64,000 nucleotides of DNA from Escherichia coli (GTDB lineage: Bacteria; Pseudomonadota; Gammaproteobacteria; Enterobacterales; Enterobacteriaceae), in the NCBI RefSeq assembly GCF_024223415.1, contig NZ_CP100500.1. The stretch is one strand, 5' to 3'. Positions 1,527 through 31,890 of the stretch are shown here, one piece after another. The notes below the pieces were generated by a model. The model was not told where the DNA came from and did no database searches. It saw only the letters and a list, made by a program, of their open reading frames with translations. Within the stretch, counting starts at the first letter, position 1; each line of letters opens with the position of its first letter. A program made the translations under genes and the position numbers.

Positions 1527-1865
1527 TCAGCCTGCGAGTTTGCCTGGTTTGGGTTGAATGAAGACTTTGCCGACCTCAAGAATTGCCCTCCGTTGTTCGG
1601 GGCTCATCTCGTCGAATGCATCCATTAACTCTTTCTTTTCTTGTGACATATAAGGTGCAACAACAGGCTGACTCCGCACCCCAGTAACTACATACAAAAC
1701 ATCTACACCGATTTCTGATAGTGCAGATAACTGCACTGCAGTAGGAGAAGTGCGATCTTTTTCCCAATCAATAAAAGTTCTCTTTGCCACACCGATAGCA
1801 TCAGCCAACCCTTGCTGTGTAAGAGATAGACGCTCTCTTTCTTCTTTAATACGTAACCCGATCAT
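1527..1865 (-). CDS. XRE-family helix-turn-helix repressor (prophage repressor candidate)
   Basis: track ORF 1527..2018 trimmed to internal Met (MIGLRIKEERERLSLTQQGLADAIGV...); classic HTH pattern; divergent from the Ner-like gene. Confidence 0.65.
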   Translation of the reverse strand: MIGLRIKEERERLSLTQQGLADAIGVAKRTFIDWEKDRTSPTAVQLSALSEIGVDVLYVVTGVRSQPVVAPYMSQEKKELMDAFDEMSPEQRRAILEVGKVFIQPKPGKLAG

Positions 1866-1889
1866 GTGAGTTTTTCTGCACTCTTTAAG

Positions 1890-1918
1890 TTGACTGGTGA
1901 GATAATCTGCACCATAAT
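1890..1918 (+). promoter_or_regulatory. candidate sigma70 promoter for the Ner-like/early operon (TTGACT - 17 bp - CATAAT)
   Basis: -35 TTGACT and -10 CATAAT separated by 17 bp, about 45 bp upstream of the 1966 start codon; sequence-only prediction. Confidence 0.3.
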
Positions 1919-1965
1919 CTATCACACATAAGGCAAACATCATTGCATCAACAAAGGAGACAACG

Positions 1966-2154
1966 ATGACTGCAGAACAAGTCAAAGCTCTCTTCCGCCA
2001 GCGCGGGATCACTTTCACCCGCTGGGCAGAAGAAAACGGCTACAACCGCAATGAGGTATACCGCGTTCTCAATGGGCAGAGCAAAGCACGTTACGGTAAA
2101 TCCCATGAAATCGCCGTGAAACTGGGGCTGAAATCAACAGCTCAGGCAGCCTGA
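1966..2154 (+). CDS. ner: Ner-like (Ner/Nlp family) small DNA-binding protein
   Basis: 62 aa; length and HTH layout resemble phage Mu Ner (GITFTRWAEENGY...GKSHEIAVKLGL); divergent from repressor, upstream of transposase. Confidence 0.6.
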   Translation: MTAEQVKALFRQRGITFTRWAEENGYNRNEVYRVLNGQSKARYGKSHEIAVKLGLKSTAQAA

Positions 2155-2200
2155 ATATTTTGATTCTTTGTAAAAGGTTATCACATATCGCAAAAGAGGT

Positions 2201-2515
2201 ATGCAGATGAGTAAGACGAATGTTTCAAGCTCCGGCAGTCGCATCCTCCGGGTACTCAAAGCGCTGCGCGGTCATGCCCTGAACGGTATTTCCAATGGTG
2301 AACTGGCGGCAGCACTGCACGAGTCACCGGCAAACATCAACCGGGCACTCAACACCCTCATTGAAGAAGGACTGGCCCTGAAACTGGAAAACGGGCGTTT
2401 CGCACCGGGCATCCAGTTGCTGCAGATCGCCATGGCCCACAGTAACGAGATGGCACGTGCACAGGATCGCATTAACGAAATCAACCAACGTGTCATTTCA
2501 GGTAGTCGTTTGTAA
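2201..2515 (+). CDS. winged-helix (IclR N-terminal-like) DNA-binding protein, function unknown
   Basis: 104 aa; SRILRVLKAL...ISNGELAAAL...INRALNTLIEEGL pattern typical of a winged HTH. Confidence 0.45.
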   Translation: MQMSKTNVSSSGSRILRVLKALRGHALNGISNGELAAALHESPANINRALNTLIEEGLALKLENGRFAPGIQLLQIAMAHSNEMARAQDRINEINQRVISGSRL

Positions 2516-2525
2516 GGAGTAATCA

Positions 2526-3443
2526 ATGGGACGCACCAAATCACCGGTTAACACTGAACTGAACGCCGAGGTACCGCTGTCGGATGATCTCAACGTCAGC
2601 CTGAATGCCATGACACAGCATCGCATGGAGATCATGCAGCAGTTTGGTGATGGACTGCCTTATGAACGTGATCGCATCGTTCACGAAGCACGTTTTTATA
2701 TGGCGCAGAGTGCTGAATCTATGCTGGAAGCGGGTAAACGGCTGATCATCTTAAAAGAAAATGAGCCACACGGGGACTTTGTTGGAATTGTAGAAGAACA
2801 ACTTGGTTTGCACGTGCGCGCAGCACAACGAATGATGAAAGCATCTTTGAAATACCTTTCACCAAAACTAGAGCCAAAAGCGACAACGTTGTCGCTTTTG
2901 GGTAAGGCAAAATTATTTGAACTTGTTGCTGAAGACGATGAAGACCTTGCCGAACTGGCCGACGGCGGCACAGTTGCCGGCCTGACGCTTGATGATGTTG
3001 ATCGCATGTCAGTACGTGAACTTCGCCAGGCCCTGCGTGAAGCGCGCGAAACTAACGCAGCTCAGCAACAGGTGCTTGCCGGAAAGGACGAAAAAATCAA
3101 CGAACTGGCCACAAAACTGGAGAAGAAATCCCGTATTCAACCGCCTGAGCCTGATGAAGAGGTGAAGAAGCTGCGGGCGGAAGTGACCGCATTAGCGGTT
3201 GAGGCGGAATCTGCCATCGCCGTCCGGCTCTCCGGTGCCTTTGAAACCCTGTGTGAATACTGCAGTAAAAACATGATTGATACCCCCAGAGATTTCATGG
3301 CCGGTCTGGTCTGCCAGATTGAACGCAGTGTTCATGCATTGCGTGAGACGTTCGACCTTGATGCCGCACCATCGGGTAACGATGCCCCCGCCTGGCTGAC
3401 CGAACCGGAGCCTGAAATCAACCGACCGGAGGGCATGCAGTAA
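2526..3443 (+). CDS. hypothetical protein (305 aa), acidic and coiled-coil rich
   Basis: good RBS (AAGGAG) upstream; no catalytic motif recognised; sits between Ner-like gene and transposase. Confidence 0.45.
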   Translation: MGRTKSPVNTELNAEVPLSDDLNVSLNAMTQHRMEIMQQFGDGLPYERDRIVHEARFYMAQSAESMLEAGKRLIILKENEPHGDFVGIVEEQLGLHVRAAQRMMKASLKYLSPKLEPKATTLSLLGKAKLFELVAEDDEDLAELADGGTVAGLTLDDVDRMSVRELRQALREARETNAAQQQVLAGKDEKINELATKLEKKSRIQPPEPDEEVKKLRAEVTALAVEAESAIAVRLSGAFETLCEYCSKNMIDTPRDFMAGLVCQIERSVHALRETFDLDAAPSGNDAPAWLTEPEPEINRPEGMQ

Positions 3444-3760
3444 TGAACACGGATAACACACAAAATATCCTGATGGACAGCCCGGAAGCACTGGGGCACG
3501 CACTGTGTAATCTGCTGCCGGAGATGGTGCAGGGTTTCCGCGTGGTGACACCTTCCGGTGAAATCTGCGTACCCGCACAGGAGGCGCATCCGTTTGTACT
3601 GACGATGGAAGTGATGCTGATGCAGCAGATAAGACGTCTGCAGCATCAGTCAGCATTGCGCCCGGCAGTTGCGCCGCAACCGGTAAATAACGTGGTGAAA
3701 ACCTGCGATGGCGAAACACTGTACGACCTCGCCAGAAAAATTGCCGCCAGAATCGGATAA
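3443..3760 (+). CDS. hypothetical protein (105 aa)
   Basis: start overlaps upstream stop (ATGA-type coupling); no motif recognised. Confidence 0.35.
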   Translation: MNTDNTQNILMDSPEALGHALCNLLPEMVQGFRVVTPSGEICVPAQEAHPFVLTMEVMLMQQIRRLQHQSALRPAVAPQPVNNVVKTCDGETLYDLARKIAARIG

Positions 3761-3775
3761 CAGGGAAGACAAGCT

Positions 3776-5545
3776 ATGACCCCGGCACTGACTGAAAAAC
3801 TTGTTGAAACAGCCCGCGCGGCACGTAATGCAGGGCATGGTAAACGCGGTGCAATATACGACGCTGCCTGTGCTGAACTTGGCATGTCCCGCGCCACTCT
3901 GCTGCGCAGGCTGAAGGAGGTCTCTGTGACTGATAAACGCAAAAAACGCGCCGATGCCGGACGCAGCACCCTGACCCGCGACGAAGCCGCGCTGATATCT
4001 GCCACACTACGTGAGGCCACCCGCAAGAACGGTAAGCGTCTCTATTCCATCGCGGATGCAGTGGAAACCCTGCGGGCTAACGGCTTTATCTCCGCAGGCA
4101 GAACAGATGAAACCACCGGTGAGTTTTTCCCGTTGTCCGAAGATGCCATCAGTCGTGCCCTGCGTAACTATGGCCTGCACCCGGAACAACTGGATGCCCC
4201 TGCACCGCATACCGAAGTGGCCAGTCTGCACCCCAATCATGTCTGGCAGATTGACGCCTCACTCTGCACGCTTTACTACCTGAGCAATGGACATAAAGGG
4301 CTGCAGGTGATGGACAGCGCGAAATTCTACAAGAACAAGCCCGCTAACCTTGCCCGTATCGCCAGTGACCGCGTGTGGAGTTACGAGATTACCGACCATG
4401 CCAGCGGCTGGATTTACGTTGAGTATGTGACGGGTGCGGAATCCGGTGAGAACCTGTGTTCTGTGCTTATCAACGCCATGCAGGAGCGTGGCGGCGCAGA
4501 CGTGCTGCACGGCGTGCCAAAAATACTCTATCTCGACCCCGGCTCGGCAAACACCGCGGGTATGACGAAAAACATGTGCCGCTCACTGGGCATCGACCTG
4601 ATAGCGCACAAGCCGCATAACGCCCGCGCCACCGGACAGGTGGAAAAGGCGCGTGACATTATCGAACGCAAGCTGGAGCCGGGTCTGAAGTTCCGGCCGG
4701 TTCACAGTCTGGAAGAACTCAACGCGCTGGCCGCGAAATGGCGCAGCCACTTTAACGCCACGGCTGTTCACAGCCGCCACGGTAAAACCCGCACGGATAT
4801 CTGGCTGAAGATTACTGCTGAGCAGCTGAAAAAAGCGCCTTCCGTTGAGGTATGTCGTGAACTGGCTGTGGCGGCACCAGAACTCCGCAAAGTCACGCCA
4901 AAACTTCGTGTCTCGTTCCGGGGCACTGAATTTGACGTATCAACGGTACCGGGCGTACTGGTCGGTGAAAAACTGATGATTACCCGTAACCCGTGGCGCA
5001 GCGATGTGGCACAGGTGGTTCTGACCGGTGAGGACGGCCACGAGACGTTCTTCCTGGTCGAAGAGGTCAGAAAGAACGAGTTTGGCTTTGCTGAAGGCGC
5101 GGCGGTATTTGGCGAAAGTTACAAAGCCCTGCCGGAAACCCCGGCGCAGATGGCGGCAAAAGAAACCGAAGCGCTGGTCACCGGTACAGACAACGCCGCA
5201 GATGCAGCTGCCGCACGCAAGGCGAAGGCGCTGCCGTTCGGCGGGCGGCTTGACCCGTATAAACATATTGATGACGCCACACTTCCGGCCTGTATACCGA
5301 AGCGTGGTCAGGCCTCTGACGTACGCGGACCGCGCACTGAACAGCGTCCCATGACTCATGTGGAGGCCGCGAAAGCCCTGCGCGGGAAGTTTAGCGCAAA
5401 CGGCCTGACCTGGACGCCGGAACATTACCGCCAGTTAACGGCACAGTACCCGGACGGCGTACCGGAAGCCGCACTGGATGAAGTCATGGCCACGCTGACC
5501 ACGCCGGCCCGCAGCAGCGTTATCAGCATTGTTAACGGCAACTGA
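3776..5545 (+). CDS. Mu-like DDE transposase (MuA-type, integrase catalytic core)
   Basis: 589 aa; N-terminal HTH region, central rve-like core (HVWQIDAS...), immediately followed by an AAA+ B-like gene as in transposable phages. Confidence 0.85.
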   Translation: MTPALTEKLVETARAARNAGHGKRGAIYDAACAELGMSRATLLRRLKEVSVTDKRKKRADAGRSTLTRDEAALISATLREATRKNGKRLYSIADAVETLRANGFISAGRTDETTGEFFPLSEDAISRALRNYGLHPEQLDAPAPHTEVASLHPNHVWQIDASLCTLYYLSNGHKGLQVMDSAKFYKNKPANLARIASDRVWSYEITDHASGWIYVEYVTGAESGENLCSVLINAMQERGGADVLHGVPKILYLDPGSANTAGMTKNMCRSLGIDLIAHKPHNARATGQVEKARDIIERKLEPGLKFRPVHSLEELNALAAKWRSHFNATAVHSRHGKTRTDIWLKITAEQLKKAPSVEVCRELAVAAPELRKVTPKLRVSFRGTEFDVSTVPGVLVGEKLMITRNPWRSDVAQVVLTGEDGHETFFLVEEVRKNEFGFAEGAAVFGESYKALPETPAQMAAKETEALVTGTDNAADAAAARKAKALPFGGRLDPYKHIDDATLPACIPKRGQASDVRGPRTEQRPMTHVEAAKALRGKFSANGLTWTPEHYRQLTAQYPDGVPEAALDEVMATLTTPARSSVISIVNGN

Positions 5546-5555
5546 GGAGGGAAAC

Positions 5556-6722
5556 ATGCTGGTACTGAAGCAGCAACTGAAAGAGGCCCGTATTCCACAG
5601 GCGGTGGCGGCGAGAGCTGTCGATGTTTCTGAGGCCACGCTGGCCCAGATTGTGAATCATAACGCGTGGCCCCGCACCAGCCCCGGAGAAGTGCGCCGGC
5701 GTCTTGCGTCCTGGCTGGAAAGTCAGGGGATTGATACAACGAAGAGTTTTGATGCTGTACAGGGCGCGGCCACGCCCCGTACAGCGAGTACCACAGATAA
5801 AACGAGCCTCAGTGAGGAAGAGAATATGTTACTCAAAAAACAGGTGTTATTTCCAGCAACCAAAAAAGCGTTTGGTCTTTTCCGTGACCCGTTCGCCGAC
5901 GAAGCCATGCAGGGTTCTGATGATGTGTTCACCACCCCGGACATTCGCTACGTGCGTGAGGCGCTGTACCAGACAGCCCGTCATGGTGGGTTTATGGCCG
6001 TCATCGGTGAGTCCGGTGCGGGTAAATCCACGCTGCGCCGCGACCTGACTGAACGTATTAACCGCGAGAATGCGCCGGTAATTGTTATCGAGCCATACAT
6101 CATTGCCATGGAAGACAACGATGTGAAAGGGAAAACCCTGAAGGCTGCAGCGATTGCCGAAGCCATTATCAGTACCATCGCACCACTGGAAAGCATCAGA
6201 CGCAGTCAGGACGCCCGCTTTCGCCAGTTGCATCGCGTCCTGAAAGGCAGCAGCCAGGCGGGGTTCAGCCACGTTCTGGTGATTGAGGAGGCCCACAGTC
6301 TGCCCATTCCGACACTGAAACACCTCAAACGCTTTTTTGAGCTGGAGTCCGGTTTCAAAAAACTGCTGTCCATCGTGCTGATTGGCCAGCCGGAACTGGC
6401 GACAAAACTGTCTGAACGCAATATGGAAGTCCGTGAAGTCGTTCAGCGCTGTGAGGTGGTCGAACTTCTGCCTCTGGACAATAACCTTGAAGAATTTCTG
6501 ACGTTCAAACTGCAACGGGCCGGTAAACAACTGACGGACATTATGGACGCCAGCGCAGTGGATGCCATACGTGCCCGCCTGAGCAATCCGGGAAGTCATC
6601 GTAAAAATATGGTCAGCCTGCTGTATCCGCTGGCCGTCAGTAACCTGGTAATAGCCGCCATGAATCTGGCCGCTGAAATCGGGGTTCCACAGGTCAACGC
6701 TGACGTTGTCAAAGGAGTTTAA
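5556..6722 (+). CDS. MuB-like AAA+ ATPase (transposition target-DNA activator)
   Basis: Walker A GESGAGKST, Walker B-like VLVIEEAH, N-terminal HTH; start set at ATG 5556 with GAGGAGG RBS (track ORF begins 5529). Confidence 0.8.
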   Translation: MLVLKQQLKEARIPQAVAARAVDVSEATLAQIVNHNAWPRTSPGEVRRRLASWLESQGIDTTKSFDAVQGAATPRTASTTDKTSLSEEENMLLKKQVLFPATKKAFGLFRDPFADEAMQGSDDVFTTPDIRYVREALYQTARHGGFMAVIGESGAGKSTLRRDLTERINRENAPVIVIEPYIIAMEDNDVKGKTLKAAAIAEAIISTIAPLESIRRSQDARFRQLHRVLKGSSQAGFSHVLVIEEAHSLPIPTLKHLKRFFELESGFKKLLSIVLIGQPELATKLSERNMEVREVVQRCEVVELLPLDNNLEEFLTFKLQRAGKQLTDIMDASAVDAIRARLSNPGSHRKNMVSLLYPLAVSNLVIAAMNLAAEIGVPQVNADVVKGV

Positions 6723-7021: not shown

Positions 7022-7552
7022 ATGGCAAAAAGTACAAAAGGGGCAAAACGTATCAAGGCCGCAGCGGCACTCTGGGTACCAGGGACACGCGAAGAGGTCA
7101 TTGAGGGAATCAGACTACTCGGTGACGCACAACGTGAACTGGTCAGGGCTGAAACAGAAATGAATGACGCCATTGGCGATATCACCGCACGTTATGCCCC
7201 GCTCACCGAGAGCCTGAAAAAACGCATGGCCGAACTGCAGTCCGGTATTCAGACATGGTGTGAGGCACACCGTGATGAACTGACCGGCAACGGGAAGGTG
7301 AAGTTCGCTAACCTCACCACCGGCGAGGTGCAGTGGCGAAACCGTCCGCCATCAGTCAGTATCCGTGGGGCGGATAATGTTATTGAATTACTGAGACGTC
7401 TGGGGCTTGAGCGCTTTATTCGTGTAAAAGAGGAAATAAATAAAGACGCTATCCTGAATGAAAAAGAGGCCGTGAAAAATATTCCCGGTATTTCCATTAA
7501 AAGCGACATTGAGGATTTTTCAATAATTCCTTTTGAGCAGGATGTGCAGTAA
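7022..7552 (+). CDS. gam: Gam-like host-nuclease inhibitor (Mu Gam family, DNA-end binding)
   Basis: 176 aa; closely resembles phage Mu Gam along its whole length as recalled (N-terminal KRIK..AAA, central ETEMND, C-terminal EDFSIIPFEQ). Confidence 0.85.
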   Translation: MAKSTKGAKRIKAAAALWVPGTREEVIEGIRLLGDAQRELVRAETEMNDAIGDITARYAPLTESLKKRMAELQSGIQTWCEAHRDELTGNGKVKFANLTTGEVQWRNRPPSVSIRGADNVIELLRRLGLERFIRVKEEINKDAILNEKEAVKNIPGISIKSDIEDFSIIPFEQDVQ

Positions 7553-31851: not shown

Positions 31852-31861
31852 GAATAAAAAA

Positions 31862-31890
31862 AACGGGTCGCCTTCTGGCGACCCGTTTTT
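31862..31890. terminator. bidirectional rho-independent terminator between speC and nupG
   Basis: AACGGGTCGCC-TTCT-GGCGACCCGTT hairpin flanked by A-run and T-run. Confidence 0.6.

Follow-up and report, generated by a model that had tools for sequence, protein, structure and literature searches.

In transposable phage Mu, the transposase gene directly follows ner (NC_000929: ner at 1099-1326, gene A from 1328). BcepMu, B3 and phiE255 carry instead, directly upstream of the genes for a Tn552-type transposase and an ExeA-like ATPase, a gene for a small winged-helix protein followed by one for a DUF3102 protein. Direct homologues of both, in the same order, lie in a 64,000-nucleotide stretch of Escherichia coli DNA (contig NZ_CP100500.1 of assembly GCF_024223415.1; hereafter "the window"). 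Here, as an earlier note on this DNA had stated with reference to Mu and as the list of open reading frames (ORFs) confirms, three co-oriented plus-strand genes stand between the Ner-like gene and the transposase gene. The host element is a BcepMu-type (Bcepmuvirus-like) transposable prophage of E. coli, already under way at the first position of the window, and the three ORFs are genuine genes of its early operon. The three genes themselves are already annotated and widely conserved, but a covarying intragenic palindrome paired with a hypervariable recognition helix, as found in the second of them, was not found described.

The DUF3102 gene encodes a helix-turn-helix (HTH) motif and, further downstream in the same reading frame, contains a perfect 28-bp palindrome. 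The two vary together between related phages, and residues of the putative recognition helix follow the bases of the palindrome. The features concerned are the following (positions are those of the window).

2207-2515 (alternative start 2201), plus strand: winged-helix gene (HTH_IclR, phrog_1368)
2526-3443, plus strand: DUF3102 gene, 305 amino acids (PF11300, phrog_1748)
2766-2945, plus strand: hypervariable specificity cassette, codons 81-140 of the DUF3102 gene (HTH and palindrome-encoded segment)
2772-2843, plus strand: HTH coding segment, residues 83-106, with the putative recognition helix V97-A106 and the putative specificity residues 98, 101 and 102
2874-2901: perfect 28-bp palindrome CCAAAAGCGACAACGTTGTCGCTTTTGG, putative cognate binding site, codons 117-126 of the DUF3102 gene
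3443-3760, plus strand: orf105, 105 amino acids, optional slot gene (phrog_5446)

The palindrome was first flagged as an inverted repeat by a terminator scan. It is unique in the window and the joint-longest perfect palindrome there. Equally long arms recur only at 31859-31890, in a host terminator (AAAAACGGGTCGCCTTCTGGCGACCCGTTTTT) far downstream of the early region that has the outline of a textbook bidirectional intrinsic terminator. Among 156 related loci with the same type of DUF3102 gene as the query (class A), the palindrome is found at the same place in 148 and measures at least 24 bp in 120 of them. Within the class, 39 variants of the palindrome occur, with 25 different half-site cores. 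Largely constant are the A-tract and T-tract and the 16 nt between them (A4-N16-T4), with AAAT/ATTT in some variants; the inner arms vary. The DUF3102 genes of BcepMu and B3 carry the same kind of palindrome as that of the E. coli prophage (TTCAAAAGCGGCGTTAACGCCGCTTTTGAA and CAAAACGGACAACGTTGTCCGTTTTG, respectively), in each case single-copy and the longest perfect palindrome of the complete genome. The window and the complete genomes of BcepMu and B3 yielded no additional copies or half-sites, which makes a multi-operator model unlikely.

The two arms of the palindrome covary. Across 42 distinct sequences, 95.6% of the cells of the comparison are paired, against 74.9% after shuffling, and none of 500 shuffles reached so high a value. 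Both sides change in 10 of the 14 pairs, and slid controls gave 31-51%. Compensation can be purely synonymous, as in the codons Arg CGG and Ser TCC of locus L009 versus Arg CGC and Ser AGC of locus L018. The four central bases are self-complementary in 40 of 41 cells, with A..T and G..C covarying, and switch between ACGT and GCGC by paired changes on several half-site backgrounds, through a Thr or Ala codon at position 121 and a synonymous TTG/CTG change at codon 122. The pair two positions from the dyad centre is GC in 24 cases and AU in 16. Since these central covarying pairs would fall in the loop of an RNA hairpin, they favour a symmetry of duplex DNA.

The protein sequence varies within the same interval. 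Relative to loci L001, L008 and L009, the DUF3102 protein is 50-60% identical over residues 81-120 and 60-75% over residues 121-140; in the flanks (residues 1-80 and 141-240) identity is mostly 90-100% (80-100%). In phages differing in this cassette, ner, the winged-helix gene and the transposase gene are 97-99% identical. The winged-helix protein and Ner are not the readers of the variable bases, because they remain 88-100% and 98% identical, respectively, across differing palindromes.

The association of helix residues with half-site bases was counted over 35 distinct helix/half-site combinations. Arginine at residue 101 goes with a half-site starting with CG (12 of 12), and glutamine with one starting with GC (15 of 16, the exception being a degraded arm); none is crossed. 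Histidine or tyrosine at this position accompanies (G/T)TCC, and valine or alanine TGTGCC. At residue 102, arginine is associated with C at half-site position 5 in all 24 cases, leucine, valine, glutamine or methionine with CA in all eight, and lysine or histidine with AA in all three. All four combinations of Gln or Arg at the first residue with Arg or non-Arg at the second are present, and the rule is valid across phages of E. coli, Pseudomonas (B3) and Burkholderia (BcepMu versus phiE255). An out-of-sample case comes from a 532-residue metagenome fusion protein (L179), in which the helix PYRTAARMM stands with TGCCAGCGCTGGCA, a pairing as in L077.

A further group of loci carries class-B genes (phrog_4623): L041, L060-L066, L070, L073, L083, L085, L092 and L013 (JBD25 gp15). 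Their proteins of about 310 amino acids have a different N-terminal HTH domain and a homologous coiled-coil/C-terminal half. The class-B palindrome, A4-N7-ACGGT-N7-T4, occupies approximately nucleotides 246-272 of the gene, just 5' of the class-B HTH, and varies between alleles whose recognition helices differ.

The product of the second gene matches PF11300 (i-Evalue 9.2e-5, residues 65-172), as do 62 of 89 homologues at E<=0.001, and phrog_1748 over its full length (5.7e-141); PGAP already labels the gene "DUF3102 domain-containing protein". The family counts 1530 representative clusters at E<=0.001 (about 1500 at 50% identity). The protein had been described as acidic and coiled-coil, and so it is: its pI is 4.83, and AlphaFold2 predicts, with confidence (pLDDT 91.9), a wholly helical fold whose long helices span residues 163-202 and 209-248. 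Its modular architecture consists of a short basic N-terminal tail (MGRTKS), the HTH domain, a coiled coil, a helical C-terminal domain and an acidic tail with a conserved P-x-W motif, which is kept in both class-A and class-B proteins. The HTH corresponds to model helices 82-92 and 97-110 (motif FVGIVEEQLGLHVRAAQRMMKA) and, read from the sequence, displays the canonical hydrophobic/Gly pattern at V89, L93, G94, L95 and A100. Neither the full DUF3102 alignment nor the N-domain alignment gave a profile link to a solved structure, only coiled-coil or chance matches. A Foldseek search of AFDB50 with the model returned only family members among the 50 matches listed, and no PADLOC defence profile matched the protein. 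Longer DUF3102 proteins of 430-545 amino acids exist, with N-terminal extensions of up to about 260 residues (P0202, P0247, P0267, P0218, P0180 and P0233); P0202, P0247 and P0267 are Cys-rich, with several CxxC-like motifs. P0202 is the product of the fusion gene in L179 (2501-4099). As no IclR-type winged-helix gene precedes this gene, its N-terminal extension may replace the winged-helix gene.

On balance, the DUF3102 protein probably binds its own intragenic site and thereby exerts cis control over the transposition module. We infer its binding, its dimerisation and its downstream effect from the sequence comparisons given above. A DUF3102 dimer would bind through its HTH to the single dyad-symmetric A4-N16-T4 site, which follows the HTH-coding segment within the same gene at a distance of about 20 codons. 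Helix and target would recombine as one hypervariable cassette, giving every phage variant a matched protein and site of its own. From this position in cis, with the early promoter on one side and the transposase and ATPase genes on the other, the bound protein would control the transposition module in one of two ways. It could be a transcriptional roadblock and autoregulator that limits transposase expression; as with intragenic roadblock operators, a protein sitting on a site past the promoter would stop elongation. Alternatively, it could serve as an enhancer-like anchor, with the constant coiled-coil/C-terminal domain and the acidic P-x-W tail coupling the site to the transposition proteins. 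There is room for a separate enhancer-binding factor, since the alignment of the transposase to phrog_310 (7.7e-147) starts only at profile position 130 and the protein has no BLASTP similarity to MuA. The evidence suggests that the protein recognises a specific sequence within the gene that encodes it, which would fit a regulator and a transposition-accessory factor alike, the two roles suggested for the three genes in the earlier note.

The transpositional enhancer of Mu (IAS) is bound by the I-alpha winged-helix domain of MuA. It overlaps the operators and is not a perfect palindrome. By analogy, the DUF3102 palindrome would be a unique internal cis site of a transposable phage, read by a DNA-binding module that is putatively tied to the transposase. 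Unlike in Mu, neither the winged-helix protein nor the DUF3102 protein shows homology to MuA I-alpha. The system also resembles the immunity cassettes of temperate phages, as recognition helix and putative cognate site are swapped together as a mosaic between near-identical phages. It differs from them in having one site inside the coding sequence of the regulator, rather than several promoter operators, and the immunity region is already filled by a separate cI-like repressor and the Ner-like protein.

Several observations weigh against cis control through the palindrome. HTH and site are only about 60 bp apart in one gene, and linkage therefore inflates their association. Coupling between residues within the protein could also contribute; such intramolecular coupling is possible because the palindrome also encodes residues 117-126. 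The arms could also stay alike through template-switch mutation, with no selection acting on individual positions. A palindrome is missing from L177 and L178, two distant members of the family (35-36% identity), and is weak and imperfect in KS10 gp15. The DUF3102 protein is acidic as a whole (pI 4.8). Its resemblance to ParB/KorB in fold comparison is modest, with no profile link to any solved structure. Finally, as RNA, the palindrome would form a very stable GC-rich hairpin of the kind expected in a terminator (-20.7 kcal/mol, z -4.8), and its A-tract/T-tract flanks resemble a bidirectional terminator.

The last point leads to the main alternative, which is unlikely, though it deserves some weight: the palindrome may act as an RNA structure in the early transcript, while the DUF3102 protein does something else. 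Such a structure would tune the amount of message reaching the transposase genes by attenuation or partial termination, by pausing, or by an effect on RNA processing or stability. The stability of the hairpin would suit such a role, as would the constant A4/T4 around a GC-rich covarying stem, an outline shared with the host terminator at 31859-31890. The palindrome always lies upstream of the transposase gene, and covariation of stem pairs is a prediction of RNA structure. However, the stem is followed by UUUUGGGU, or by UUUGG in several variants, and just 3-4 U (UUUUGGG) fall short of the U-tract of an intrinsic terminator; the scan called no plus-strand terminator there. The covarying, always self-complementary central bases would sit in the loop. 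Moreover, the element lies inside a translated region, where ribosomes would melt the hairpin, and an RNA role leaves the combinatorial tracking of the stem sequence by recognition-helix residues unexplained.

An equally tentative proposal, for which the chances likewise seem low, is that DUF3102 protein and palindrome together serve as a module for self-recognition: the allele-specific HTH would mark the DNA of its phage at a single internal position, and the constant coiled-coil/C-terminal domain, with the P-x-W tail, would recruit or license the transposase and ATPase, replacing the enhancer-binding domain of MuA. Hypervariability would stop related prophages in one cell from activating, repressing or parasitising each other.

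It is quite improbable that the winged-helix and DUF3102 proteins are early transcription regulators of an ordinary kind with target sites elsewhere, involved for instance in the lysis-lysogeny decision or in the timing of middle or late genes, and that the palindrome is a functionless, self-perpetuating by-product whose symmetry template-switch mutation maintains. Both proteins do have HTH motifs, B3 has a cII-like gene just upstream of the winged-helix/DUF3102 pair, the palindrome is missing in some family members, and some homologues in the AlphaFold database are named "phage transcriptional regulator" or have an additional Cro/C1 HTH domain. Yet a functionless perfect palindrome of 24-30 bp is unlikely to last against coding constraints, and this one holds one codon position in E. 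coli, Pseudomonas and Burkholderia phages, whose proteins share no more than 40-56% identity. The unrelated-looking N-domain of class B has a palindrome of its own. The winged-helix protein is near-invariant despite a different type of upstream early gene, which makes an involvement in immunity specificity less likely.

In B. subtilis, spo0J contains a parS site, and KorB is acidic while bearing an HTH. The DUF3102 system may be like ParB-parS and KorB-OB in its helical HTH domain (the fold resemblance is modest), and it shares with them a specificity that diversifies between relatives and a dyad-symmetric, here putative, cognate site within or beside the protein's own gene. That an acidic yet HTH-bearing protein with a single palindromic site in its own gene should organise or position phage DNA in this manner, for example as a chromosomal-domain organiser or by recruiting SMC, rather than directly control the transposase, is nevertheless very improbable: no ParBc or KorB Pfam match, and thus no CTP-binding N-terminal domain, was found in the query or its 89 homologues, there is no sequence-profile link to ParB, no ParA partner is encoded within 1-9 kb in the early region, partition is superfluous for an integrated transposable prophage, and the system has one site per genome, within a transposition operon.

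The first of the three genes was correctly recognised as encoding a winged-helix protein (HTH_IclR 5.6e-6, phrog_1368 9e-45), though the length of 104 amino acids then given is probably slightly too long. The second ATG, at 2207, is more probably the start and gives 102 amino acids, since the sequence AGAGG lies 7 nt upstream of it and only 1 nt upstream of 2201, and since RefSeq/GenBank give 309 nt for homologues. With a pI of 10.7 the protein is basic; it shares about 70% identity with Pseudomonas homologues and is homologous to B3 ORF14, BcepMu gp12 and JBD25 gp16. It has only the DNA-binding domain in common with the IclR family: PF09339 covers residues 14-59 (5.6e-6), and in a protein of 102-104 amino acids there is no further domain, unlike in IclR proteins of about 250 amino acids with their C-terminal effector-binding domain. 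Searches of solved structures by sequence returned only coiled-coil or chance matches, and PADLOC only weak, partial HTH-type matches. The idea that it is a detached MuA I-alpha domain was rejected (hhalign against MuA residues 1-100, probability 0.2).

The order winged-helix gene, DUF3102 gene, transposase gene and ATPase gene is found in BcepMu (gp12, gp10, gp09, gp08) and B3 (ORF14 to ORF11), as well as in phiE255 (gp42/gp41), JBD25 (gp16/gp15), Bise and the "Microcystis" phage Mae-JY22. It recurs in three distant metagenomic members and in most of 80 IMG/VR loci recovered with the winged-helix protein; two of these are without a DUF3102 match and a few contigs stop before the transposase. 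KS10, which has a D3112-type transposase, carries a BcepMu gp10-like gene directly before the transposase and no winged-helix gene. The winged-helix and DUF3102 pair is a hallmark of a large phage supergroup. The earlier view of the three genes as specific to this lineage finds no support for this pair, common to the BcepMu/B3 supergroup, and only orf105 is variable. Homologues are essentially confined to transposable phages. In keeping with the phage role envisaged in that note, none with a known non-phage function turned up. Two of the three proteins carry DNA-binding motifs, and the genes for all three lie directly upstream of the transposase and ATPase genes.

The 1.9-kb region is present in 632 of 5426 complete E. 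coli genomes (about 12%), and in 413 of these at least 80% of the query, which takes in orf105, is covered. Plasmid matches number 15 in 72,556 records; most are near the chromosomal prophage type, and several are megaplasmids or chromosome-sized replicons. Some E. coli genomes match the early region at up to three places, and a single cell may therefore harbour related prophages that differ in their DUF3102/palindrome cassette. All three genes evolve as coding sequences: dN/dS is lowest in the winged-helix gene (0.02-0.03), intermediate in the DUF3102 gene (0.14-0.23) and highest in orf105 (0.30-0.35). The literature on DUF3102, BcepMu early genes, Saltoviridae, and enhancers or palindromes in transposable phages yielded no functional study, and the database records of BcepMu, B3 and phiE255 assign no function to their homologues of the pair. 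Proteomics in E. coli has picked up Gam, the DUF3102 protein and its HTH neighbour from such a prophage (PMC9927464).

The third gene, orf105, is genuine and accessory; it evolves fast and occupies a variable slot. Its translational coupling to the DUF3102 gene, as earlier proposed, is borne out by the stop/start overlap TAATG at 3441-3445. The E. coli prophage adds orf105 between the DUF3102 and transposase genes; BcepMu has the 70-residue gp11 between gp12 and gp10. The product matches phrog_5446 (5e-68), for which a word search alone gave 11 clusters, and has no match in Pfam, NCBIfam or PADLOC; its structure model is poor, and the fold search gave noise. A homologue of 87 amino acids occupies the same slot in L009, with 55-67% identity (BLASTP/global alignment), and the N-terminal 70 or so residues recur in other loci at 40-55% identity, with 40-50% in class-B loci. 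Class-B genes in E. coli-type loci are usually accompanied by an orf105-like gene. Such genes always stand in the slot between DUF3102 and transposase genes and always overlap or abut their neighbours. Klebsiella phage KP12, L007, L008 and most IMG/VR loci lack orf105, and the DUF3102-to-transposase gap there is 7-22 nt. A second mosaic joint lies near DUF3102 residue 260 (window 2526-3443 compared with L007, L008 and L050): the tail type ...IERSVHALRETFDLDAAPSGNDAPAWLTEPEPEINRPEGMQ accompanies orf105, and ...LESTARSLRSTFDLPDEPTGNAAPSWLTEPTPQINGLEA its absence. The database protein P0130 combines the first 33 residues of orf105 with the last 76 of a DUF3102 protein, through either recombination or a chimeric assembly. 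An antisense ORF of 175 amino acids (minus strand, 3192-3719) lies opposite the 3' end of the DUF3102 gene and orf105. It was set aside as an opposite-strand by-product, the sense genes being the conserved and annotated ones.

The remaining features of the early region are the following.

644-1408: Dam-type adenine methylase gene (TIGR00571 above cutoff), adjoining the repressor gene on its upstream side
1527-2018, minus strand: cI/XRE-type repressor gene
1890-1918: promoter-like site for the early operon (sequence scan)
1966-2154, plus strand: Ner-like early regulator gene (BcepMu gp16 family; TIGR04111, phrog_925), heading the early operon
2142-2164, plus strand: hairpin TCAGGCAGCCTGA followed by ATATTTTGAT, at the ner stop codon, weakly terminator-like
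2166-2199, plus strand: non-coding element GTAA[AC]AG[AG]TTATCACATAT[CT]GCAAAAAG in the spacer between ner and the winged-helix gene
3776-5545, plus strand: Tn552/BcepMu-type DDE (rve) transposase gene, 589 amino acids (phrog_310)
5556-6722, plus strand: MuB-like AAA+ transposition ATPase gene of the ExeA family (phrog_296, 5e-93; homologues annotated at 1167 nt)
between the ATPase gene and Gam: small phrog_2041 gene
7022-7552: Gam gene

The assignment to the Bcepmuvirus-like phages is based on the BcepMu gp16-type Ner (98 bits against TIGR04111 BcepMu_gp16, with a cutoff of 34), the Tn552-type rve transposase and ExeA-like ATPase, Gam, GemA, Mor and close nucleotide identity; in PHROG profiles, phrog_310, phrog_296 and phrog_491 were all matched. 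The nearest isolated phage is Escherichia phage PhiKM (Bcepmuvirus), with 95.8% nucleotide identity over 93% of a 6.1-kb query. The Dam-family methylase gene is also kept in PhiKM, KP12 and E. coli prophages. In contrast to BcepMu, B3 and phiE255, the E. coli prophage goes from ner to the winged-helix gene with neither a cII-like nor a gp13-type gene in between. By eye, related loci appear to have a comparable hairpin and T-run after ner, and the hairpin at 2142-2164 may therefore be a partial terminator downstream of ner. The adjoining spacer element at 2166-2199 occurs once in the window, and across loci its conservation exceeds that of the adjoining coding sequence. It is found in every locus with a gp16-type ner directly before the winged-helix gene and is absent elsewhere. 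As an obligatory site for the winged-helix protein it was rejected, because the winged-helix gene is conserved in loci without the element, including the BcepMu and B3 genomes, where ner is not directly upstream.

BcepMu/B3-type prophages are very common, and relatives infect Pseudomonas, Burkholderia, Klebsiella and Salmonella. The results suggest that the DUF3102 family consists of sequence-specific DNA-binding proteins that carry their own target site. In phages with a Tn552-type transposase, protein and site are a candidate replacement for the Mu enhancer or for fine control of the transposase. The arrangement is unusual in that the putative binding site is written into the reading frame beside the recognition helix, so that the pair recombines as one unit. 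Self-recognition, if true, would create transposition "incompatibility groups". The family would also, if the pairing holds true, represent a natural library of orthogonal HTH-operator pairs under a simple two-residue code, and this apparent code from two residues to base pairs could supply orthogonal DNA-binding parts.

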